In this document: in pieces, positions 821-63,769 of the stretch | Layout of the letters: each line of letters begins with the position of its first letter | How positions within the stretch are numbered: the stretch's first letter is position 1 | Sequence record: PZ540767.1 | Length of the DNA stretch: 64,000 bases | Source of the DNA: a phage | Strand: one strand, 5' to 3' | The notes under the pieces: model-generated | Databases searched by the model: none | What the model saw: the letters and a program-made list of their open reading frames with translations, nothing else | What the model was told of the DNA's origin: nothing | Translations under genes and position numbers: made by a program

Positions 821-2050
821 ATGGCCGATATCACTATTGATCAAGTAGTAGCTAAAGATCTTCACCTTGAGGATCTGACTACTATTGACCTTCAGGGATC
901 TGGCGTGTGGGATAAGATGCTGCGTAATATGCGTGTTCAACTCAACGATCAGTTTGAGAAGAATCGCATCACTGGCCCTACTTATGGGCAAGTATACGCA
1001 GCTACTTATGAGTCTACTCTTCAAGCTGCTATCACTTTACTTCTGGCTAAAGAACGTCAGGCATTAGAGATTAAGCAGCTTGAATTGCAGAACCAACTCA
1101 CTCAAGCTCAGATTGATCAAATCCATGACCAGATGCAGAAGACGCCTTATGAGATCGAACAGATTAAGGCACAGACAGAGAATATCAAAACTGAGACTGC
1201 ACAGACGCAGTACAATATTGATCATATTCTCCCACTTCAGGCTACTGGTTTAGAACTTGAAAACCAGACTCGTGAGTATAATCTCAACACTGTACTGCCT
1301 ACTCAGGTAGCTCAGACCGAAGCTCAGACTTCACTGACTAAATCTCAGGAAGAACAGATCCGTGCTGAGATGCAGAAAGTACCATATGAGATTGAAGTAC
1401 TTCAGTCCCAGGTGGATGAGTCTAAAATCAAGGTTCTGCAAGAGCAATATAACCTCGATAACCTCATGCCTGCTCAGCTGGGTCAAATCAATGCTCAGAC
1501 TGCTGGTGTGGTTAAAGAGACTGAACTTAAGGACTATCAACTGGTTAATCTGTACCCAGCACAGCTTGCAGGTACATTGGCCCAGACTGAGAATGTCCAA
1601 CAAGATACTGCTCTCAAAGAGTATCAGGTACAGTTCCTCTACCCTGCTCAATTAGCTCAGGCTAATAAGCAGCTTGAGTTAACTGAAGCTCAGATTGCTG
1701 TACAAAATAAGCAACTTGATCTACTTCAGGAACAGGTTAACCAGGCTAAAGCTCAGACTGATTACTATGCTCAGAAGGTTGTTACTGAGAAAGCTCAGAC
1801 TGATGCTACAGTGATTGGGGATGGGTCAGTAATTAATACCCAGGTTCAGCTGATGAATGCGCAGAAGGATGGGTATAAGCGTAATGCTGAACAGCAAGCT
1901 GCTCAGATTATGTCTAATACCTGGAATGTCCGTCGTCAAACTGATGAGGATACTTCTGCAAACAGTACCAACTTACTGGATGATGCTACTGTGGGTAAAA
2001 CCATTCAGACCTTGCTGTCTGGTGTAGGCGTAAATGTTAGCCCGTCCTAA
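821..2050 (+). CDS. Repeat-rich coiled-coil virion protein (409 aa)
   Basis: Seven or more tandem ~25-aa repeats of type Y(N/Q)L(D/N)xL(Y/M)PAQLAQT...; Q/E/A-rich. Confidence 0.65.
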   Translation: MADITIDQVVAKDLHLEDLTTIDLQGSGVWDKMLRNMRVQLNDQFEKNRITGPTYGQVYAATYESTLQAAITLLLAKERQALEIKQLELQNQLTQAQIDQIHDQMQKTPYEIEQIKAQTENIKTETAQTQYNIDHILPLQATGLELENQTREYNLNTVLPTQVAQTEAQTSLTKSQEEQIRAEMQKVPYEIEVLQSQVDESKIKVLQEQYNLDNLMPAQLGQINAQTAGVVKETELKDYQLVNLYPAQLAGTLAQTENVQQDTALKEYQVQFLYPAQLAQANKQLELTEAQIAVQNKQLDLLQEQVNQAKAQTDYYAQKVVTEKAQTDATVIGDGSVINTQVQLMNAQKDGYKRNAEQQAAQIMSNTWNVRRQTDEDTSANSTNLLDDATVGKTIQTLLSGVGVNVSPS

Positions 2051-2069
2051 TCGACTGGTATACTATATA

Positions 2070-2093
2070 GGGAGCCTTGTGCTCCCTTTTTTA
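2070..2093 (+). terminator. Intrinsic terminator/attenuator
   Basis: gggagc-cttgt-gctccc hairpin followed by TTTTTT; precedes RBS gaggt and ATG 2107. Confidence 0.6.
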
Positions 2094-2106
2094 TTATGAG
2101 GTCACC

Positions 2107-4854
2107 ATGGGACTCTTTAGCGGAAAGAAGAAAACGTACCGAGACTTTAGCTACTCTCGCCTAATTGAAGATGATTACCTGCCTGATGTTATGGGTCAGG
2201 CAGTTACTACGTATGTGCTGGATAAAGATAATACCAAATCACTTACTGATCTGATGCTGGAATATGGGTGGTCAGCTAACAATGTTAAGTGGGATGCTGC
2301 ATATCGCTGGGCCAAAAAAGGTAAGTATTTTTATGGCCTCCCTACTACCACTACTGTTACTGCTACTGACTTCACTGGTTCAGAGTCCTTAGAAGATGTT
2401 CTGCAATCACTCACAGGTCGTACAGATCTTACCTATGTATATAGTAAGTTTGTGCCTGGGAATTTCAGGCATGGTATGTGGCAGCAACTGATCTCAACTC
2501 AAAATTATAATGCCACTACTAATATCCTGGGATCTCTGACTTCATCTTTGGGCACTACGTGCTGGCTTCATAATGCTACTAACTATTTAACCAGTGAAAC
2601 CAGGGAAGCTGTAGAAGACACCATGCTGGAGCATTGGGGCTTGTCACCTAAGAGTGGAGCTACCAATATTCGAAGCCAGGATTTGAATGCTGCTGATACT
2701 CCTGATGGGGTTAGTGCCACTGGTTCCAATTATGTCCGTGTGGAGTATGCGTGTAGCTTTGCTGGGGTAGAACGAATTAAGACCGTGGAAACCACTAAGG
2801 TAACCACTACAATTAAAACCCCAGATCCCAATGAGGAAGGTAGCTACACAGAAGAGACTTCATCTACTTCTTCAGATACCACTACTAACACGACTAACTG
2901 GAATGGGGTAACTCTACCTAATAACGTGATCAGTGCAGTGGATGTAGGTACAGGTACTTCAGAGGTTACTGAAAGTGATCCTGTCGATACGCAAACTACA
3001 ACTGATGAAACTACTGGGGTAATTACAGAAGTCGTTACAGAGGTCACCAGAGTTATCACAACAAACACTGTTTCGATCAATGTTATTGCTTACTTCAATA
3101 TGTCGTTTGGGATCTATGACTACAACCCTGATTCTGAAACCATTGACACTACCACTGTGTTGGATGACCGAGATTCTGGGGATTATGATCCTACTGCTCC
3201 TCTGGTTCCAAGTGGGGAAGATACCGATGATTCCCCAGATTACTTCATGGTGTGTTATGAATATACCTCAGGGGGTACTCTCCATATTGGTTACTTTACC
3301 TATCAATATGGGTCTGGGAATTATCCTGCATTGGATGGGATCACAGGTACTGAGGTTGCCGACTTCGGACAACACTTCCCTCGTATGTATTTCCGTCTGG
3401 ATGGTAAACGCCTCATTTCAGATGAGTACTCACAAACTGAAGGCTATAAGACCAGTAAAAAGTTAGGTAATAAGCTGGACTTAGGTTGGTTAGATGTAGG
3501 AGAAGAAATTTATAATAGCTTGAGTTCTTTGGGCAAAATCAGAGATGTAATGATGATTCTTATGGTTCCTGCCAATACTGAAAATGCTATTGAACAGGAA
3601 TATCTCTATAACTATTTTCATACCCTCTGTATGTTACGTCCCCAGTACACTGAAAAAAACTGGACAATCTACTCAACTGAGTCTTCACAATCTGGTTCAG
3701 CTACAGTACCCCCATCAGATCTGGATACTTTTGATATGCGTTTAGGGGCTTTCATGGAGTCCTCTGACACATTTATTGCAACATCAAACCAGATGGACTG
3801 CCTGGGGTATGCTCGTATCACAGGCTCAATAGGTAACATTGGTGCCGTGGCTTCAGGGAGGGGTACAGGTAAGCTTCCCTTTAGATATGAATACAGACAG
3901 GATAATCAGCTTAAATACCGTTATGGTGTGAAAGATGTAGATTATCATTACTACAGAGTTCAGGTATCCAGCACTCAGTATGATGAAGTCAGGGTGTATA
4001 ACCTAAGCCACCAGGTTCGTGTAGGCGGTAAACAGGTTAACCGGAGTGGTTCCAGTGATGAACTCATGGTGCCTTTGGATCATGCTTTCAGAAAGCTGTT
4101 TAGTACTCATGAAAGAGAAACATTATATGCAAGGGCTGCTCAGATTTTAATCTGCACTGAGTATACAGTTAAGACTAAGTGGTATCAGACTAGCATTTTC
4201 AAGGCAATTACCGTTGTAATAGCTGTAGCTGTTTCTTGGTGGACTGGGGGAGCTTCTTTATCCATGATTAGTGTGTTAACTGCTGTAGCAACAACGGCAG
4301 CAACAATGATAGCTTTCTCACTATTGAGTAAGTATGTGTTCAGTAAACTGGGAAGTTGGGCTTCTATTCTGGCTACTGTAGTTGCTGTGGTCGCTGCTGT
4401 TTATGGGGGATATCTTGCTTATACAGGAACTACAGGCCCATATAGTTTAACTGCCCAAAATCTTATGCAGGCATCCAATGTTGCATTTAAAACTGCTGAT
4501 GCTTCCCTAAAAGGACAGCAAATAGCTATGCAGCAAAAGTTTGGATCTCTTCAGAAAGAGTTAGAAGAAAAGCAGGAAGTACTACAGCAAGCTCAAGATG
4601 AGTTAAACCAGGGTTCTAATACTATTTCTGACTGGATATTCCTACAGGCTACAAATGGCTATGTTAACTTAGGTGAAACACCTGATCAGATGATAACCCG
4701 TACTTTGAATACAAATATTGGAACACTGGCTTTACAGCTACCTGACGTATACCTAAGTCAGGCATTGTCTTTACCTTCACCTGTAGAGATCATGCAGTTT
4801 ATGCAACAAAAACTGTATACTGTTCCAGATGACGAACTCAATCCACTTACATGA
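2107..4854 (+). CDS. Large virion protein, Thr-rich with C-terminal transmembrane helices (putative ejection/internal protein)
   Basis: Track ORF 2077-4854 begins with TTG; first ATG at 2107 follows RBS gaggt; Thr-rich low-complexity region; two or more hydrophobic helices near C-terminus followed by coiled coil. Confidence 0.6.
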   Translation: MGLFSGKKKTYRDFSYSRLIEDDYLPDVMGQAVTTYVLDKDNTKSLTDLMLEYGWSANNVKWDAAYRWAKKGKYFYGLPTTTTVTATDFTGSESLEDVLQSLTGRTDLTYVYSKFVPGNFRHGMWQQLISTQNYNATTNILGSLTSSLGTTCWLHNATNYLTSETREAVEDTMLEHWGLSPKSGATNIRSQDLNAADTPDGVSATGSNYVRVEYACSFAGVERIKTVETTKVTTTIKTPDPNEEGSYTEETSSTSSDTTTNTTNWNGVTLPNNVISAVDVGTGTSEVTESDPVDTQTTTDETTGVITEVVTEVTRVITTNTVSINVIAYFNMSFGIYDYNPDSETIDTTTVLDDRDSGDYDPTAPLVPSGEDTDDSPDYFMVCYEYTSGGTLHIGYFTYQYGSGNYPALDGITGTEVADFGQHFPRMYFRLDGKRLISDEYSQTEGYKTSKKLGNKLDLGWLDVGEEIYNSLSSLGKIRDVMMILMVPANTENAIEQEYLYNYFHTLCMLRPQYTEKNWTIYSTESSQSGSATVPPSDLDTFDMRLGAFMESSDTFIATSNQMDCLGYARITGSIGNIGAVASGRGTGKLPFRYEYRQDNQLKYRYGVKDVDYHYYRVQVSSTQYDEVRVYNLSHQVRVGGKQVNRSGSSDELMVPLDHAFRKLFSTHERETLYARAAQILICTEYTVKTKWYQTSIFKAITVVIAVAVSWWTGGASLSMISVLTAVATTAATMIAFSLLSKYVFSKLGSWASILATVVAVVAAVYGGYLAYTGTTGPYSLTAQNLMQASNVAFKTADASLKGQQIAMQQKFGSLQKELEEKQEVLQQAQDELNQGSNTISDWIFLQATNGYVNLGETPDQMITRTLNTNIGTLALQLPDVYLSQALSLPSPVEIMQFMQQKLYTVPDDELNPLT

Positions 4855-18869: not shown

Positions 18870-19610
18870 TTACATGGTAAATGGATCATCACCAGTGGTG
18901 GCATTGTCAGATCCTGGGTTGAAACCAGCACCTGCAAAGTTACCACCCGGAGCACCAGCGTTACCCTGACCAGTCACTTCTTTGAAGCGATCCCATACCT
19001 GGCCTTTGTTAGCTTCGAGCCACTTATCTTTGAAAGTAGCGACTTCCTGCTTACCACGAATTTCCTGTTCAGTCTTATCGTCTTTACTACGGAAGACTTT
19101 TGCAATGGCATTGATCTCACGAGCTTCATTGATCGGCTCATACTGACCATCATCGTTGCGTTTCTGCTTGTTCTCTTTAATACGCTGGATAGCGAAGGTG
19201 ATCGGTTTACCACACAGATCCACCAGCATAGGAACATCAGTCGGAACTTCGGCTTTCTTCTCGAAGTTATACAGGTTGATGGTTTTGGTTTCTGGTTCCA
19301 GTTTAACCAGAGGCTTACCGCAGGCCAGCAGGCAGATCGAGTTTGCTTTCAGGAAGTTCTTGGTGTACTCGCCTTTATCGTTGACGACTTTACCCTGACC
19401 GTTCATGAACCAGATCTGCTCTTTGTAGATGCCGTGATCATCTTCGAATTCGATGTTCATGGCTTGAGCTTTGGACTTTTCCGACTTGGTGATGTAAGCC
19501 AGTTTGATGATGCCCGGATAGACGTCAGTGTCACGAATGCGCATACCAGTGCCCAGGGTATCTTTCTCTACTGCTTTTTCTGCATCATAGTTAAAATCAA
19601 AATAAGACAT
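18870..19610 (-). CDS. ssb: Single-stranded DNA-binding protein (phage SSB-like)
   Basis: 246 aa with Gly-rich linker (GNAGAPGGNFAGAGFNPG) and acidic tail 'GDDPFTM', reminiscent of SSB C-terminal tails; position in replication/recombination module. Confidence 0.5.
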   Translation of the reverse strand: MSYFDFNYDAEKAVEKDTLGTGMRIRDTDVYPGIIKLAYITKSEKSKAQAMNIEFEDDHGIYKEQIWFMNGQGKVVNDKGEYTKNFLKANSICLLACGKPLVKLEPETKTINLYNFEKKAEVPTDVPMLVDLCGKPITFAIQRIKENKQKRNDDGQYEPINEAREINAIAKVFRSKDDKTEQEIRGKQEVATFKDKWLEANKGQVWDRFKEVTGQGNAGAPGGNFAGAGFNPGSDNATTGDDPFTM

Positions 19611-19611
19611 G

Positions 19612-20142
19612 TTAGTTACCTTTTGTTTCTAGGCCATGGTTCTCATGGAAGCCTAATTCAATTAATTTCTCAGCCCGGCAGATAGCTGCTTCATTGGCTG
19701 TTTTGAAGGTACGTTGCCATACCTTCTTACGGTTCATCGTGATTTCTGCTACATAGCGATCACGACGTTTGCAGTACCAAATACCTTGGTGTCCAGTAAT
19801 GGTATTGCTGATTGCACCCCTGTTTCGCATATTCTGAAGCATCGTAGTGTCCTTCAGATTTACTGCCCTGTTGTCATCACGAATATGGTTATCGTGGTCT
19901 ACGTGCCCTTTAGGCCACTGCCTGTTGTGCATGTAGTAACAGATGATATGCTCTCCATAGGTAGTGCCGAAGATTGTTATATGGCGGTAGCCGCTAGCCT
20001 TGTGGAGACTCCCAGCGCGACTACCGATAACAATTCTCTTATTACAAGACTTGCTAATCCAAGTAAGATGTCCAGTAAGAGCATCATATTTTAGTACCTT
20101 TTCAAGCATTTCAAGGGTGAGATCTTTTTTGGGAATTTTCAT
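19612..20142 (-). CDS. HNH homing endonuclease with AP2-like DNA-binding domain
   Basis: 'HVDHDNHIRDDNRAVNL' HNH motif; C-terminal 'GIWYCKRRDRYVAEITMNRKKVWQRTFKTANEAAICRAEKL' AP2-like; free-standing between ssb and ATPase. Confidence 0.7.
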   Translation of the reverse strand: MKIPKKDLTLEMLEKVLKYDALTGHLTWISKSCNKRIVIGSRAGSLHKASGYRHITIFGTTYGEHIICYYMHNRQWPKGHVDHDNHIRDDNRAVNLKDTTMLQNMRNRGAISNTITGHQGIWYCKRRDRYVAEITMNRKKVWQRTFKTANEAAICRAEKLIELGFHENHGLETKGN

Positions 20143-20870
20143 GCGTAATACTCATGCAAACGGTCTAAGACCAACTGCATGTCATTATCGATGAAGGTTT
20201 CCTTGATATCAAATAAGTCCTCTGGGCCACGTAAACGCTCGTTAATGGTGTTCTTAGTAACCTGGGTCTGGTAAACATGCTTGTACCCGAGCATCTCCTC
20301 GCGCTCGTTAATGTGAAGTAACCCGTTCTGGTATTCTTCCAGATCCGTAAGCTTCACTTTCTTACAGGCAATAACCAGACTGAAGTATGACTCAATGCCC
20401 TGGTTCTTCAGTGCCCCTTTAACAGGTACACAGGTTTCACGAACCATGTCATCGTTAACTTCATCCTTCGTGTGAGCTAAGAAGATCACGTTCTTGGTAG
20501 ACGTGGCTACCAGCACCTGCATCAGGTGTTTGAACTGCTGGGCAAATTGGCCCCATGCAGCTTGGGTATTCGAGCTAGTAAGTACGAGCTGGCTCTCTAC
20601 CATGTCCATGTAGTACGTCAGTGAATCAACTACAATGGTGTGAATATTCGGCTGGGTTTCAGCCCACTGAAACGCTTTAGGGAGGATATCCCAACGTGCA
20701 ATGGTACGTTCCAGGAAACCTGATTTGAACGGCAGCTTTTTACCTGATTCACAGTTAAGGTACAGCACACCTTCCGGGTTCTTCAGGTTCTTCAGTGACC
20801 GTGATTTACCACTTGCTGATTTACCTACAAGCAGTACAAGGTTGTCATTAACGCTGATTTGATCGGACAT
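20139..20870 (-). CDS. RecA-fold P-loop ATPase (Sak4/AAA_24-like recombination ATPase)
   Basis: Walker A 'GKSASGKS', Walker B-like 'IVVDSL'; start set to internal ATG 20870 (MSDQ...). Confidence 0.5.
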   Translation of the reverse strand: MSDQISVNDNLVLLVGKSASGKSRSLKNLKNPEGVLYLNCESGKKLPFKSGFLERTIARWDILPKAFQWAETQPNIHTIVVDSLTYYMDMVESQLVLTSSNTQAAWGQFAQQFKHLMQVLVATSTKNVIFLAHTKDEVNDDMVRETCVPVKGALKNQGIESYFSLVIACKKVKLTDLEEYQNGLLHINEREEMLGYKHVYQTQVTKNTINERLRGPEDLFDIKETFIDNDMQLVLDRLHEYYA

Positions 20871-20939
20871 AATTACCTCTTTTGAAATGCCCCCGAAGGG
20901 GCAAACCCACAAAGGGAACGGAAGTTCCCCAACACACAA

Positions 20940-58992: not shown

Positions 58993-59011
58993 CATTGCCC
59001 TGTGGGCAATG
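58993..59011 (-). promoter_or_regulatory. Hairpin promoter candidate (N4 vRNAP-type), instance 1
   Basis: + strand gcaTTCATTgccc-TGT-gggcaatg: 8-bp stem, 3-nt loop; ~60 nt upstream of ATG 58931. Confidence 0.5.
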
Positions 59012-59014
59012 TTT

Positions 59015-59275
59015 TTACAGAAGAAAGATGGACGAGATAACATCTTCATAGGCAGCATGTTCTGCCGGATCAGAGATAATGAGAGCCTGATATTCATGAA
59101 GAGTATCAATACAGTCTTCAGTGAGGATTTCAGCTACTACATTGAGTGCTTCAGCCTCACCCACATTTGCACACAAATGGCTTACAGCACGGGTGAATAG
59201 CTTCAAAGCTAACTCATCCATACCACCTTCATAAGCCAGTTGGCATTGTTCCAGAGTAATATTTACATCGATCAT
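59015..59275 (-). CDS. Small strongly acidic early protein (86 aa)
   Basis: ATG; 16 Asp+Glu versus 2 Lys+Arg. Confidence 0.45.
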   Translation of the reverse strand: MIDVNITLEQCQLAYEGGMDELALKLFTRAVSHLCANVGEAEALNVVAEILTEDCIDTLHEYQALIISDPAEHAAYEDVISSIFLL

Positions 59276-59565
59276 GAGAATGAGATCCGTTGTTCAAGGA
59301 TAACTGGGACTCCAATGGCTACTTTAGCCATCAGAGCTTTAATTTCACGCATATCTACTTTGATAGTGAAGTTCTTTTTATAAAAACCATCTAGCGAAGC
59401 TGGGAAGTCTACCACTGCAATACGTGGAAACTTCTCCAGTGCTACATTGAATTTGGTAATAGTGATAGTGGCATTAATGCCAATGTTGAAGTCACTATAA
59501 TAAGATATAGTACCTTCACCCAGCATCTTAGAATGCCAGTTAAATACTTGGTTAGAATTGGTCAT
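59272..59565 (-). CDS. Hypothetical early protein (97 aa)
   Basis: ATG after ggaga RBS. Confidence 0.4.
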   Translation of the reverse strand: MTNSNQVFNWHSKMLGEGTISYYSDFNIGINATITITKFNVALEKFPRIAVVDFPASLDGFYKKNFTIKVDMREIKALMAKVAIGVPVILEQRISFS

Positions 59566-59806
59566 CGTCTAGTTTCTCCAGACACAGATACTGACCTTTG
59601 CTCATAATTGCATAGTCAATACCATTAAGAGTTAGATAGTCTTCAGTCCCCAGATTTCTGCTACCATCACGCATCTTGTTCTGTAGTCTTATGTCCTCTG
59701 GTTTAATACCAATGGCTAGTTTAGTTTGAATAGTTTTAGCTTCAGCTTCATCTACCCTAACCATCAATGAGGGATGAATATCCCCAAATACAGCATAGTA
59801 GCTCAT
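59552..59806 (-). CDS. Hypothetical early protein (84 aa)
   Basis: ATG; acidic. Confidence 0.4.
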   Translation of the reverse strand: MSYYAVFGDIHPSLMVRVDEAEAKTIQTKLAIGIKPEDIRLQNKMRDGSRNLGTEDYLTLNGIDYAIMSKGQYLCLEKLDDDQF

Positions 59807-59939
59807 GTTACCCCCATACTGATATTAACCAGTCATACTCCTCCTGGGTTAATACAGGTTTATATTGCTCAATTACATTGAGTGCATTATTGAAGTTCTC
59901 ATTGCAGAAGAATGAGATGATTGCAAAGTATTTCATTGG

Positions 59940-60278
59940 TTATACCTTGGGTAAGTTTTGGATGCTTCCAGCATTACTTGACCAACGCCCACTAACTACG
60001 CCATGGAGCCTCTCTTTAGGTACATACTTCTTAAATTCCCACATACCATTTTTATTAAGGAATACATCAAATCCCATAAACATTTCATCAGCATGACCAC
60101 GATTGGTAGAAGTATGTTTTTGGTTTTTACGTTTAATACGAGAACCATCAATACAGTACCCATCAAGGGTACAGCCAATGGCTAAAGCCATCTTTACTTT
60201 CTTGAGCCATGCATCAGTAACACGGATATGAATACACTTTTGCATAGCAGGTGCATAGACATAGATTATTTTACTCAT
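59940..60278 (-). CDS. Hypothetical early protein (112 aa)
   Basis: ATG; downstream of hairpin promoter instance 2. Confidence 0.45.
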   Translation of the reverse strand: MSKIIYVYAPAMQKCIHIRVTDAWLKKVKMALAIGCTLDGYCIDGSRIKRKNQKHTSTNRGHADEMFMGFDVFLNKNGMWEFKKYVPKERLHGVVSGRWSSNAGSIQNLPKV

Positions 60279-60344
60279 AGTAATCTTCCCATAATAAATA
60301 GAGGATTAAGATAAAACCAGATATGTAAGCAAGCAATAACATAT

Positions 60345-60566
60345 TCATTTATTGTCCTGTGGACAATATACCTCCCAATCTGTCCATTTTTGAGCTAGGA
60401 AGCCTTCTACAGTATCTGTGATAGTATGGCCATCAAGAAATCTTACAAGTATTATACTATCCTGGGACAATGTTATATAAGAACCACTATCCCATACTGA
60501 TCTTTTTATCTTAGCCCCTAGTTTCAGCATTAATAATGCTTCTTTAGCAGTCATATAATGTACCAT
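60345..60566 (-). CDS. DUF2829/Tad2-like small protein, copy 1
   Basis: N-terminus 'MTAKEALLMLKLGAKIKRSVW'. Confidence 0.5.
   Translation of the reverse strand: MVHYMTAKEALLMLKLGAKIKRSVWDSGSYITLSQDSIILVRFLDGHTITDTVEGFLAQKWTDWEVYCPQDNK
60350..60368 (-). promoter_or_regulatory. Hairpin promoter candidate, instance 2
   Basis: + strand ataTTCATTtattgtcc-TGT-ggacaata; overlaps 3' end of the preceding small ORF; ~75 nt upstream of ATG 60278. Confidence 0.5.
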
Positions 60567-60742
60567 TCATGTGATTCATCGAAGAATGAACAGAATTCAG
60601 ATACTTTAATAAGCCCAGGTGGGATAGTGTTATCACAACATACATTATCCCCTTTGATATAATAAAAGAGTTCTGGTTTCATCCAGTCAGCTCTGATCTT
60701 ACATCCGATCTTCATTGCTAACAGGGCTTCCTGAGTCGTCAT
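60551..60742 (-). CDS. DUF2829/Tad2-like small protein, copy 2
   Basis: Start at internal ATG 60742: 'MTTQEALLAMKIGCKIRADW'. Confidence 0.5.
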   Translation of the reverse strand: MTTQEALLAMKIGCKIRADWMKPELFYYIKGDNVCCDNTIPPGLIKVSEFCSFFDESHEWYII

Positions 60743-60938
60743 ATAATTTCCACTCCATATCTGCATATTCTTCAGTAAACTTATTAACAGCACAGGCTAG
60801 ACTGACAAAGTTTAATGGTTTATGTACATAGCAAATACAGTTGCCTTGTAAATCATAATAGTTAGTATAATCAGTCCAGGTAGCAGGAATAACCTTGCAA
60901 CCTATTTTCATTGCAAGCAATGCTTCAGCTGTTGTCAT
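60699..60938 (-). CDS. DUF2829/Tad2-like small protein, copy 3
   Basis: 'MTTAEALLAMKIGCKVIPATW'. Confidence 0.5.
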   Translation of the reverse strand: MTTAEALLAMKIGCKVIPATWTDYTNYYDLQGNCICYVHKPLNFVSLACAVNKFTEEYADMEWKLYDDSGSPVSNEDRM

Positions 60939-61128
60939 TGAATAACTCCCAATTATCTACGTCACCATAACAAGGTATATAGTCTTCAAGTACCAAATGG
61001 GGAGTACCATCTTCATTAACTGTTATATCATCTATAGGATCATATTGTACCCAATCACCTGGTGCCCATGTTTCCCTTCGTACTTTGCATCCTAGTTTAA
61101 GAGCTAGTACTGCTTCTTTGGTTTTCAT
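60925..61128 (-). CDS. DUF2829/Tad2-like small protein, copy 4
   Basis: Start at internal ATG 61128: 'MKTKEAVLALKLGCKVRRETW'. Confidence 0.5.
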   Translation of the reverse strand: MKTKEAVLALKLGCKVRRETWAPGDWVQYDPIDDITVNEDGTPHLVLEDYIPCYGDVDNWELFNDNS

Positions 61129-61174
61129 CCCCTGTCTCCAGTAGACCGATTCACAAGAGTGTTCGGAGAACACG

Positions 61175-61204
61175 TTAATAAACTAAGCCCTCCAGTGAGG
61201 GCTT
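61175..61204 (-). terminator. Hairpin, terminator-like, upstream of the paralogue array
   Basis: aagccctc-cagt-gagggctt 8-bp stem; U/A-rich downstream on - strand. Confidence 0.4.
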
Positions 61205-61208
61205 TTGT

Positions 61209-61481
61209 TTAATATGAATATTCAATACGTTTCCAGTGCTCAAGGTTGAGTACACCACCATCTTTGATATGTTTGAGCATAGTAAGCAGTAAAACATACA
61301 GCTTATCTTTCTCACCTTTAATCTCTGATTTAACGTGATAGAACTCTTCACCCATGATGGTTATTTCAATACGATTGACATACCACTGCTGACCTAAATG
61401 ATCTTGAATCAGTCTACGAGTGATATGAGGATATGATGCTTCTTTGACAGCTTTACGATGCAGCTCTAATTCAAGATCCAT
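61209..61481 (-). CDS. Hypothetical early protein (90 aa)
   Basis: ORF with ATG. Confidence 0.45.
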   Translation of the reverse strand: MDLELELHRKAVKEASYPHITRRLIQDHLGQQWYVNRIEITIMGEEFYHVKSEIKGEKDKLYVLLLTMLKHIKDGGVLNLEHWKRIEYSY

Positions 61482-61670
61482 AGTTATAGTCCTACATTTA
61501 CCCAGCCTACACTGGGTATAAGAATTGAACGGATATTTAATGTTTTCAGAGAGCGTATGAAGTAATGGTTATCCCTCAACTTATACGTCTCATAGATATG
61601 AAAGTTCATGATATTTCTAACACGTGCAGCAAAGTGATCATACCCTTTACCTTTCTTAATCATAAATACC

Positions 61671-61922
61671 TCAATTGTAGTTTTCGTACATGTCGTAGCA
61701 CACTTTGAAGTGTTTACGAGCTTTACGTATTTGCTTACGAGTAGGCTTAGTTACAAACGTATAATAACGTTCGTAGGGCAGACCATAGTTATGATTAGTT
61801 ACCGATTGTTGACTGAATACCAGTTGCCAGAAACTTGGCACTGATTCAATGATGCCATTACCAATACTAAACTTGTATGCGGATACAAATACAACATCGG
61901 TATAGATTGTAGTAGTGCTCAT
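61671..61922 (-). CDS. Early protein, paralogue A of 'TKPTxKQ(I/V)R' pair (83 aa)
   Basis: 'YTFVTKPTRKQIRKARKH'. Confidence 0.45.
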   Translation of the reverse strand: MSTTTIYTDVVFVSAYKFSIGNGIIESVPSFWQLVFSQQSVTNHNYGLPYERYYTFVTKPTRKQIRKARKHFKVCYDMYENYN

Positions 61923-61935
61923 AATTACCTCTGGT

Positions 61936-62127
61936 TTAATGTACTGGGATTACTAAAGTATTATGACCAGCAAAGCTGACTTTATTACTATCTTTGATGA
62001 GCACACAGTTATGGTTATCACCATCTTCTGTGGCTTTCTGCCATACATTACGGTCACCATATGCCCATGTCTGAGCAAACATGAACTGAGCACCATCTTC
62101 TAATTCATGGAATTTAATTACTTGCAT
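61936..62127 (-). CDS. Hypothetical early protein (63 aa)
   Basis: ATG after agagga RBS. Confidence 0.4.
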   Translation of the reverse strand: MQVIKFHELEDGAQFMFAQTWAYGDRNVWQKATEDGDNHNCVLIKDSNKVSFAGHNTLVIPVH

Positions 62128-62192
62128 GATTTAATCCTCTAATTCAGCATATTGATTAATAGCCCTGGTTTCACAGGGCTTATTAAATAGGG

Positions 62193-62477
62193 TTAGAACC
62201 AATGTGGGTAATCAGCCATGAACTGGGCTAATTCACGCTCATGCTCACTGATAGCTGTACGCTTACAACGACGTACTTGCTTAGCTGTAGGCTTGGCTGT
62301 AAATGCATACTGGTGCATTGATGAGGACATGGGATTGTTATCCACTACCAATTCAACAGCTACACACCATTGAGCAGGTTGAACCATATCATCAGGGAAA
62401 CCGCTACGTTTAGTGATTTCGTTAACTGCACAAGGGTCAGCAGGTAAGAACATTACGGAGGTTTTAATAACACGCAT
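62193..62477 (-). CDS. Early protein, paralogue B of 'TKPTxKQ(I/V)R' pair (94 aa)
   Basis: 'YAFTAKPTAKQVRRCKRT'. Confidence 0.45.
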   Translation of the reverse strand: MRVIKTSVMFLPADPCAVNEITKRSGFPDDMVQPAQWCVAVELVVDNNPMSSSMHQYAFTAKPTAKQVRRCKRTAISEHERELAQFMADYPHWF

Positions 62478-62529
62478 AGTTAATACTCCAATAGGTTATA
62501 TACCCTGGCTTACACCAGGGCTTGAGTGA

Positions 62530-62745
62530 TTAGAATGGGCAACCAGTTTCAGCTTCGAGCTTGTCCATGAAGTAGCCTTCATTGTGCAAGCGAGCGTGCA
62601 GCTCTACATGACTTTGCATACGATAGTTATCGAGTAATGACAGGAAGTCTGCATACTCGGTATCAGTTGCCCTACGAGCATTACTCATGTCTACAGGCTT
62701 AGTGCTAAAGCAATTCTCAATCATACGAATGTCAGAAGTACGCAT
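62530..62745 (-). CDS. Hypothetical early protein (71 aa)
   Basis: ATG after ggag RBS; ~40 nt downstream of hairpin promoter instance 3. Confidence 0.45.
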   Translation of the reverse strand: MRTSDIRMIENCFSTKPVDMSNARRATDTEYADFLSLLDNYRMQSHVELHARLHNEGYFMDKLEAETGCPF

Positions 62746-62782
62746 AGGTATATCTCCAATAGATTAAGTGGACACTTCTATT

Positions 62783-62800
62783 CATTGCCTGTAGGCAATG
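62783..62800 (-). promoter_or_regulatory. Hairpin promoter candidate, instance 3
   Basis: + strand cttctaTTCATTgcc-TGTA-ggcaatg; 7-bp stem. Confidence 0.5.
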
Positions 62801-62930
62801 CATGGTCGTAGTACTGTCGCTGTCGCTTCGTACTACTCCCTGTGTAATACCAGTGTTCATTAGAATGGCTTACAGAGACTGTGACTATTAGTTATTATTT
62901 TAAAGGCAACCCGTTAGGGTTGCCTCTATT

Positions 62931-63152
62931 TCAAAACGGAATCTCATCACTGAATCCTGACAGATTCACTGGATAAAACTCATGCCAGTAATAAGACTGA
63001 TCATGAGCCTCAATGGACTCTGCACGGATTTCCTTATACATACCACTGTTACGAACTTCTTGCAGGGCAGCTTCCGCTTCCTCAAGAGTTCCAAAGGTAT
63101 CTACAAAGGTATCTGCATAGAGATCCCCAGGTACAACAGTAAGTAAGAACAT
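62931..63152 (-). CDS. Acidic early protein with SSB-tail-like C-terminus (73 aa)
   Basis: ATG after ggaga RBS; ends '...NLSGFSDEIPF'; first gene after hairpin promoter instance 4. Confidence 0.5.
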   Translation of the reverse strand: MFLLTVVPGDLYADTFVDTFGTLEEAEAALQEVRNSGMYKEIRAESIEAHDQSYYWHEFYPVNLSGFSDEIPF

Positions 63153-63203
63153 AATATGTTCTCCAAATCAATGATAGGACACCATGTCCTATCTCTTCTA
63201 TTC

Positions 63204-63220
63204 ATTCTCCTGTGGAGAAT
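63204..63220 (-). promoter_or_regulatory. Hairpin promoter candidate, instance 4
   Basis: + strand cttctaTTCATTctcc-TGT-ggagaat; 7-bp stem, 3-nt loop; ~52 nt upstream of ATG 63152. Confidence 0.5.
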
Positions 63221-63769
63221 ACCACTGATGCTTAAGTGCAAGAGAACTACGTAGTAGTTCTCCTTGCATACTTCCACTGAAGGTATAGGTACACTTTGTG
63301 TGTAAGATATAGGTTGGTTTAGGTATGAGGTAGGTGGATGATAGGATATAGGGTGAGTATAGAAACATTACCAAAGTAGTAATTTGACACTCAATTCCCA
63401 TCATTTCCTATATAAGTTAACTGGTCACGGTACTGAGTGATTAGGTTATCGGAGTACACCGTTAGGGTGTACGGAGATAACTGGTGATTCTACATAGAAT
63501 AGATCTATAGCTATGTGATGACTGAGGGTGGGTTAGTGAGGGATTGTGTTAAGGGATTGAGTGAGATAGTAACACTGTGTCAAGTGGTTTGTCTTATATC
63601 ATTTTGTTATAAGCATATTCAGAATTGATATATAGATTAATCTGGACTGGTTTATCAGTAACTTACTGTATACAGGAAGTAGTACAGAGTTAGACTGACA
63701 TACGCCAGAGAGTAAGTTTGCCACAAGTTTTGAAACGGAGTAGCGCACCTGTACTGTCATGTAGCACAG

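Follow-up and report, generated by a model that had tools for sequence, protein, structure and literature searches.

Why should a phage place, at the head of its early region, a small acidic protein that ends like SSB, its host's binding protein for single-stranded DNA? This question is raised by a phage DNA stretch of 64,000 nucleotides (nt; sequence record PZ540767.1), which was analyzed as a whole and is called the window here. In it, an open reading frame (ORF) at 62931..63152, stop codon included, encodes a protein of 73 amino acids (aa). A first-pass annotation had described this ORF, without giving a strand, as an early gene whose acidic product mimics the C-terminal tip of SSB and might serve as a decoy or adaptor toward host SSB partners. 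We confirmed the ORF and assign it to the minus strand, on which it reads from an ATG start to a TGA stop as MFLLTVVPGDLYADTFVDTFGTLEEAEAALQEVRNSGMYKEIRAESIEAHDQSYYWHEFYPVNLSGFSDEIPF, with the C terminus …NLSGFSDEIPF. The protein has 14 Asp or Glu residues versus 3 Lys or Arg, an isoelectric point of 4.07 and a net charge of -11. As judged by sequence comparison, its tail is a genuine, selected and modular SSB-tip motif. More tentatively, we propose that the protein acts as a decoy for host proteins that read this tip.

The tail comprises residues 67-73, FSDEIPF (62934..62954, minus strand). Aligned to the C terminus of Escherichia coli SSB, PPMDFDDDIPF (PDB entries 1eqq and 4mz9; a second enterobacterial SSB chain, 7f2n, ends alike), it agrees with FDDDIPF at five of seven positions and has a conservative Asp-to-Glu exchange, so that the likeness initially noted holds. 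Like the bacterial SSB C terminus, it has Phe at the last position, directly before the TGA stop here and also terminal in 8 homologues, Pro at position -2 and Ile at -3 (I71-P72-F73, corresponding to the E. coli I-P-F), acidic residues at -4 and -5 (D69-E70, with S68 in place of the third Asp) and Phe at -7. It also follows a linker that is poorly conserved and predicted to be flexible, with a predicted local distance difference test (pLDDT) score below 50 at residues 54-70 and hypervariable residues 59-66. Among the 964 stop-to-stop segments in the window, this ORF is the only one that ends in IPF. Based on the window's own amino acid frequencies, the number of these segments expected by chance to end in [DE][DE]IPF is 6e-4, or 2.6e-5 with F at -7.

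Conservation of the DEIPF terminus among homologues had been proposed as a check, and FSDEIPF proved invariant in 8/8 homologues. In a codon table over six loci, residues 51-58 are invariant, residues 59-66 hypervariable and residues 67-73 again invariant. The codons of the tail show 0 nonsynonymous and 2 synonymous changes, and given that 32/73 columns are invariant overall, the probability that the last 7 are all invariant is 0.002. The linker (62955..62978, minus strand) varies at 7/8 positions among the six loci. The segment before it, DQSYYWHE (62979..63002, minus strand), is aromatic-rich and marks the start of the disordered region. All 9 sequences share it unchanged, the codons of D51 and H57 varying only synonymously; it may be a candidate second contact motif. 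Pairwise ratios of nonsynonymous to synonymous substitution rates for the gene as a whole range from 0.26 to 0.77. The earlier interpretation of the tail as an SSB-tip motif was thus borne out, both by its invariance beside a variable linker and by the occurrence of the exact heptapeptide on bona fide phage SSBs.

This occurrence emerged from a scan of IMG/VR for F-x-D-E-I-P-F followed by a stop, which returned at least 120 loci (L010-L129), with 118 matches read. All 118 close an in-frame ORF and, among the matches listed, to which the following counts also refer, 116 of these ORFs are of at least 53 aa. At least 30 matches are OB-fold SSBs (phmmer against residues 1-115 of E. coli SSB). Other bearers of the tip are small SSBs of phrog_18154, Gp2.5-like proteins (phrog_112), N4-type SSBs (phrog_743), SSBs of phrog_9002, a Cas4-domain exonuclease (phrog_1990) and SF2 helicases (phrog_16). 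The exact FSDEIPF ends the OB-fold SSB of L087, the N4-type SSB of L030, the phrog_9002 SSB of L039 and the Cas4-like exonuclease of L028. Because it ends SSBs as well as other proteins of DNA metabolism, the tail of the 73-aa protein is probably a genuine modular tip. From this sampling, phages appear to use the SSB tip commonly as a modular docking tag, also on proteins without an OB fold (for example, at L012, L028, L044, L115, L046 and L030). We did not find a survey of SSB tips as modular phage tags in the literature searched. That a protein other than an SSB bears such a tip is therefore nothing unique; what is unusual here is the tiny acidic domain that bears it, which probably does not bind DNA, and the position in the first early-gene slot. 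About 30 of the tip-ending ORFs encode mini-proteins of 53-96 aa.

The protein could instead act through its folded domain, the tail not being used as an SSB tip and its likeness being due to convergence with another C-terminal function or to a fragment that was retained. Room for this explanation is left by the shallow set of homologues and by the many tiny uncharacterized phage proteins with the same generic fold. A further point in its favor comes from the 84-aa core early protein encoded at 59552..59806 (minus strand), whose end, LEKLDDDQF, was considered as a tip and rejected as variable across homologues. Among the 120 homologues listed, the ends include LDNDYF, ADDPLF and ADDLFI, and some are truncated or lack a terminal Phe, indicating that acidic-aromatic ends can arise without constraint. 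Precisely because the end of the 84-aa protein is unconstrained, however, the strict invariance of FSDEIPF becomes more meaningful. The absence of nonsynonymous changes against 2 synonymous ones beside a hypervariable linker, the sharing of the exact heptapeptide with genuine SSBs and a chance expectation in the window below 1e-3 make an unused tail unlikely in our view. Two further candidates were set aside: the ETGCPF tail of a 71-aa early protein as an SSB tip, as it is not an acidic-IPF end, and a clamp-binding motif in the FSDEIPF tail, which was dropped by eye for want of a Q-L-x-L-F pattern.

The phage encodes an SSB of its own, an N4-type protein of phrog_743 (18870..19610, minus strand) that ends …TTGDDPFTM. 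Its relatives (proteins P0009-P0026) end …EDPFKMM, …DNLFM or …SLFS; since Phe is never terminal among them, this family would use a different C-terminal motif. The phrog_743 member of L030 instead has the canonical end …PDFSDEIPF. In N4, the C-terminal residues of the SSB are needed for the activation of late transcription via the β' subunit of host RNA polymerase (PMC4496689). The 73-aa protein thus carries the only host-type tip encoded in the window. It is therefore conceivable that it is an adaptor, which attaches through its acidic domain or DQSYYWHE to a component of the phage or to a protein on DNA and recruits a host SSB-interacting enzyme by its tip. Such an adaptor would supply the host-type tip that the phage SSB is without and that some phrog_743 members possess (L030), and two separately conserved segments, DQSYYWHE and FSDEIPF, would suit a bridging function. 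Yet the gene is accessory and missing from most relatives, which have the same type of SSB, and it occupies the first early slot, ahead of the expression of replication genes; an adaptor therefore seems rather improbable to us.

A reader of the tip might also be encoded by the phage itself, for example, a Sak4-like protein, an exonuclease or the DNA polymerase, with the 73-aa protein as a small subunit or regulator of the phage's own replication-recombination machinery. There is precedent in phage HK620, whose Sak4 depends on the final six residues of the SSB that it pairs with (PMC5928155), and the window contains a gene for a Sak4-like annealing protein (20139..20939) close to the SSB gene. 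The tips on Cas4-like exonucleases and helicases elsewhere also suggest phage-internal assemblies. Against this, the gene for the 73-aa protein is far from the replication module and is gained and lost independently, and most relatives replicate without it, so we give a phage-encoded partner only a small probability. Between the Sak4-like and SSB genes lies an ORF for an HNH endonuclease (19612..20142, minus strand; phrog_99).

What precedes the tail does not resemble an SSB. An AlphaFold2 model built from a 9-sequence alignment predicts residues 1-50 (63003..63152, minus strand) to form a strongly acidic, folded β-β-α-β domain (pLDDT of ~85; strands at 2-8, 16-20 and 42-49, helix at 23-36), with ~20 disordered residues at the C terminus. 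A folded domain followed by a disordered, variable linker and a tip parallels the layout of SSB and in this respect supports a decoy function. Bacterial SSB, by contrast, is an OB-fold tetramer, whereas here a 50-residue acidic domain with no family match takes its place, for which single-stranded DNA binding is not expected. With nine net negative charges (-9) on 63 residues, the body is the most acidic among the tip-bearing proteins examined (-14 charges per 100 residues versus -9 for the next). Other phage proteins ending in F-x-D-E-I-P-F share the tail exactly or nearly so, but their bodies bind or process DNA and are mostly basic or neutral. The body of the 73-aa protein is unrelated to these and is encoded in the immediate-early accessory region rather than in a replication module; a comparison of the domain without its tail to the 118 tip-bearing proteins yielded nothing (all E > 1). 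Acidity and the lack of similarity to these 118 proteins ruled out the body as a mini-SSB, and its charge and unrelatedness to other tip bearers render binding of single-stranded DNA unlikely. On the absence of an OB fold and the strong negative charge, we class it as a non-SSB protein.

Searches with the 73-aa protein gave no match in Pfam or PHROG and no sequence match in PDB even at E ≤ 10; PADLOC returned one weak, non-significant match (Cas10_Id, E = 0.007). The predicted domain had no significant fold match. The top Foldseek matches, T7 Gp2 and p56, were non-significant (E ≥ 1, TM-scores of 0.35-0.48); T7 Gp2 and the p56 proteins of phi29 and VMY22 are similar in size, acidity and three-strand-plus-helix topology, and none has an SSB tip. 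An 84-aa viral protein of L047 that ends ESFVDEIPF, a possible remote homologue, aligned weakly with the 73-aa family at an hhalign probability of 20% (P = 0.0011), a match that is partly driven by the tail. L047 is a high-GC viral contig with two nearby small tip-bearing ORFs, 906..1160 (84 aa, ending …ESFVDEIPF) and 2006..2242 (78 aa, ending …SEFNDEIPL).

The distribution of the gene bears on its function. Phages with ~92% identity to the window over conserved genes are the Klebsiella N4-like Schitoviridae FBKp27 (Efbeekayvirus), GADU21, P184 and P19-618, and by this measure the source phage is a Klebsiella N4-like phage of the Schitoviridae near Efbeekayvirus. In a pairwise alignment with P19-618 (PQ133600.1), a cassette of ~447 bp (62855..63301) in the window is represented by ~28 nt, between flanks that are >90% identical. 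In transcription order the cassette contains a promoter hairpin, a 5' stem-loop, a Shine-Dalgarno sequence, the ORF and a terminator-like hairpin. As in morons, a single ORF is thus enclosed by its own promoter and terminator and is present or absent between close relatives. The gene was not found by tblastn in 50,697 GenBank phage records or 72,556 plasmids, and a profile search of 1.84 billion representative proteins recovered only its own cluster. A DNA-level donor for the tail and terminator, such as the 3' end of an SSB gene, was not found in phages. The homologues form eight metagenomic clusters of 67-95% identity, 73 aa in length except for one internally deleted form of 57 aa, compared with 227 clusters for the core early protein of the same phages. 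In every locus recovered (L003-L009) the gene is the first early gene, followed by a second gene that varies (71, 75, 144 or 101 aa), and FBKp27 has a 47-aa hydrophobic ORF in the corresponding slot. From these comparisons, we conclude that the gene is accessory and rare and that the first-gene slot it occupies is hypervariable, and that the cassette is a rare accessory element and not a general trait of N4-like phages. Gain and loss as a cassette next to a varying downstream neighbor is typical of autonomous host-directed accessory genes.

Several observations concern the surroundings of the cassette. At its upstream junction, a segment of ~20 nt, GTGATTTGTACCTATAACG, is present (window ~63290-63310; L001 ~3345-3372; L005 ~470-492), and its orientation in P19-618 is opposite to that in L005, L008 and L009; the inverted segment may be a footprint of the recombination behind cassette gain and loss. 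The second early ORF (62530..62745, minus strand; phrog_20790), which encodes the 71-aa protein ending …EAETGCPF, has its own hairpin promoter, and unrelated genes occupy its slot in sister phages. Four tandem small paralogues of 73, 80, 79 and 82 aa with a common EALLAMKIGCKV-type motif lie at 60345..61173 (minus strand). One of them (60925..61173) scores above the Pfam cut-off for a Tad2-like domain (Thoeris anti-defense 2; 26.9 bits versus 25), and another (60345..60566) gives a sub-threshold Tad2-like match. The gene content suggests that the early region is an island for anti-defense and host takeover.

The plus strand encodes a virion RNA polymerase of 3560 aa. Early and middle genes are read from the minus strand, which places the 73-aa gene at the start of the early region. 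Upstream of it is a hairpin, ATTCTCC-ACA-GGAGAAT followed by GAATAGAAG (63204..63220, minus strand; 7-bp stem, 3-nt loop). The promoters of the N4 virion polymerase are hairpins with a 5-7 bp stem, a 3-nt loop with a central purine at -11 and a C:G closing pair, in which the stem bases are variable and pairing alone is needed (PMC4496689). On the template strand, the loop of the hairpin at 63204-63220 is 5'-TGT-3', so that its middle base is G, and a C:G pair closes the stem; the hairpin conforms to the N4 type in stem, loop size, central purine and closing pair. The N4 promoter loop is GGA, and the loop sequence of this hairpin differs from it. At promoters of this type, the virion polymerase initiates about 11 nt downstream of the loop center. 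Three sister hairpins of the same design are also on the minus strand: ATTGCC-TACA-GGCAAT followed by GAATAGAAG (62780..62803; 5' of the next ORF, 62530..62745), TATTGTCC-ACA-GGACAATA followed by AATGAAT (60350..60368) and CATTGCCC-ACA-GGGCAATG followed by AATGCAA (58993..59011). The four hairpins, from 58993 to 63220, are each 35-70 nt 5' of an ORF; as expected of N4-type promoters, they occur in multiple copies at the early end and on the early strand, with shared flanks and stem pairing kept. The initial description of the gene as the first ORF after "hairpin promoter 4" holds, given that the hairpin at 63204-63220 is the fourth of the four in plus-strand coordinates.

Comparison between phages supports the pairing. 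In L005, L008 and L009, the promoter stem is swapped for GGCC/GGCC and the loop is kept, and a sister hairpin of FBKp27 reads ATTACCC-ACA-GGGTAAT. The stems found across phages (ATTCTCC, ATTGCC, ATTGTCC, ATTGCCC, ATTACCC and GGCC) each have a matching partner arm, and the ACA loop remains constant while stems change with compensation. Position and promoter type thus indicate early expression of the 73-aa gene, a status that is well supported structurally. As the first gene to be transcribed, it might encode a regulator of early transcription itself, whose free tip competes with the SSB tail at the virion polymerase or at the transcription bubble and so tunes early transcription or shuts it off. 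Davydova and Rothman-Denes reportedly mapped, in 2003, a template-recycling determinant to the C-terminal residues of E. coli SSB. The activation of N4 early promoters and the displacement of transcripts depend on host SSB, but when purified E. coli SSB and virion polymerase were used, a direct interaction could not be detected (PMC4496689). A core role of this kind is also hard to square with the absence of the gene from nearly all relatives, and we consider it very unlikely.

The match of the tail to the SSB tip, its invariance, the existence of a class of such tips, the acidic non-SSB body and the first-gene position all argue for the 73-aa protein as an immediate-early accessory decoy or inhibitor, the tip of which would fill the SSB-tip pockets of host genome-maintenance proteins. 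That it carries the sole host-type tip in the window, given a phage SSB without terminal Phe, points in the same direction. We favor this function tentatively, at a probability somewhat short of even. At least 17 genome-maintenance proteins dock onto the SSB tip (PMC7145534). The 73-aa protein would be made first after injection, and its C-terminal Phe with the free carboxylate, together with Pro and Ile, would enter the hydrophobic pocket, with its basic rim, in which host SSB partners bind the SSB tip. Candidate targets are Pol III chi, PriA, RecQ, RecJ, ExoI, RecG, RNase HI, Ung and others. A filled pocket would place the protein in competition with SSB, and at least one of these enzymes could lose its link to SSB-coated DNA. 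DQSYYWHE, eight residues before the tip, may add a second contact through which a single target is bound with greater affinity and specificity. As a result, host replication would be shut off, or else phage DNA and early transcription bubbles would be protected.

A narrower version of this proposal, possible but doubtful, is that the protein is a natural competitive inhibitor of the SSB hub in which the tip and DQSYYWHE together bind one host enzyme tightly and disable it within the first minutes. This enzyme could be Pol III chi or PriA, in which case host replication would be stopped, or ExoI, RecJ, RecQ or RNase HI, in which case injected DNA and RNA:DNA-prone bubbles would be protected. 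Blocking SSB-tip interactions with small molecules brings DNA replication and recombination to a rapid halt and is lethal to bacteria (PMC3594151), and competition at this interface can thus be effective. The proposed point of attack, the SSB-tip pocket, is the same for these inhibitors and for the 73-aa protein, the former being chemicals and the latter a natural protein.

Several points weigh against a decoy. Position -6 of the tail is Ser and not Asp. The family is shallow, a single 50%-identity cluster with members 67-95% identical, and the DNA around the tail is nearly identical between loci, so that part of the invariance may reflect recent ancestry. SSB-tip affinities are weak, in the micromolar range, and SSB has four tips per tetramer; a monomeric decoy would therefore need high abundance or an extra contact. 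The gene is missing from all 16 close GenBank relatives and hence dispensable. The presence of tips on phage exonucleases and helicases suggests that such tips can also serve phage-internal assemblies. Finally, early transcription of the N4 type cannot do without host SSB (PMC4496689), and interference with SSB functions could therefore be self-harming.

SSB tips as such are already known, and so are motif mimicry by viruses and small proteins for early host takeover. In T7, gp2.5 and gp4 are two phage proteins with acidic, Phe-terminal tails that compete for one binding site, and the sharing of a tail between phage replication proteins is known from this pair. Unlike the 73-aa protein, both T7 proteins bind DNA, and their tails bind the phage's own polymerase and have no IPF. 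In 2011, Yano and Rothman-Denes reportedly described gp8 of N4 as an early protein that inhibits DNA replication in the host and has the clamp loader as its target. It is likewise a small early protein directed at host replication, with no sequence relationship to the 73-aa protein. Pol III chi, which reads the SSB tip, is part of the clamp-loader complex. The first-pass annotation knew of no description of such a protein for N4-like phages, and in the literature searched we found no natural non-SSB mimic or decoy that carries the SSB tip.

Additional structures accompany the gene. The Shine-Dalgarno sequence GGAG (63161..63164, minus strand), 8 nt 5' of the ATG, is invariant in five loci. Between it and the promoter hairpin, the 5' untranslated region contains a stem-loop of 9 bp with a 3-nt loop (63173..63193, minus strand), which is largely kept in homologous loci: the changes in L005 and L007 result in G:U wobbles, and in L008 and L009 the pair next to the basal one is mismatched. 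Its role is possibly mRNA stabilization. Beginning 6 nt past the stop codon, a terminator-like GC-rich hairpin, GGCAACCC-TAAC-GGGTTGCC followed by TTTAAAATAA (62905..62924, minus strand), is kept in homologous loci with one wobble-compatible change and is under the T-run threshold of the terminator scan. An extra perfect hairpin with a 9-bp stem and 3-nt loop, GAGAACTAC-GTA-GTAGTTCTC on the plus strand (63242-63262), is part of a 60-nt extension 5' of the promoter hairpin; the window and L007 alone have it, and L005, L008 and L009 do not. A conserved hairpin in non-coding DNA 5' of the early genes (window 63451-63474; L005 ~270-292) has the arms GTACACC…GGTGTAC in this phage, whereas relatives have GTGCTCC…GGGGCAC, the changes between them being compensatory.

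In conclusion, the 73-aa protein provides a testable hypothesis at an interface that is already pursued as a drug target: the SSB tip is of antibacterial interest because chemical blocking stops replication and kills cells (PMC3594151). If our proposal is correct, a phage protein that acts at the SSB-tip interface would reveal which SSB partner matters most to the phage, and the design of inhibitors could start from an existing peptide or protein scaffold. The known strategies of host takeover would then extend to mimicry of a motif of the SSB hub and, with many small tip proteins in viral contigs, there would be an undescribed class of short-linear-motif mimics of the SSB interactome. As N4-type early transcription depends on host SSB, the 73-aa protein could further lead to a control point not yet recognized in this unusual system.

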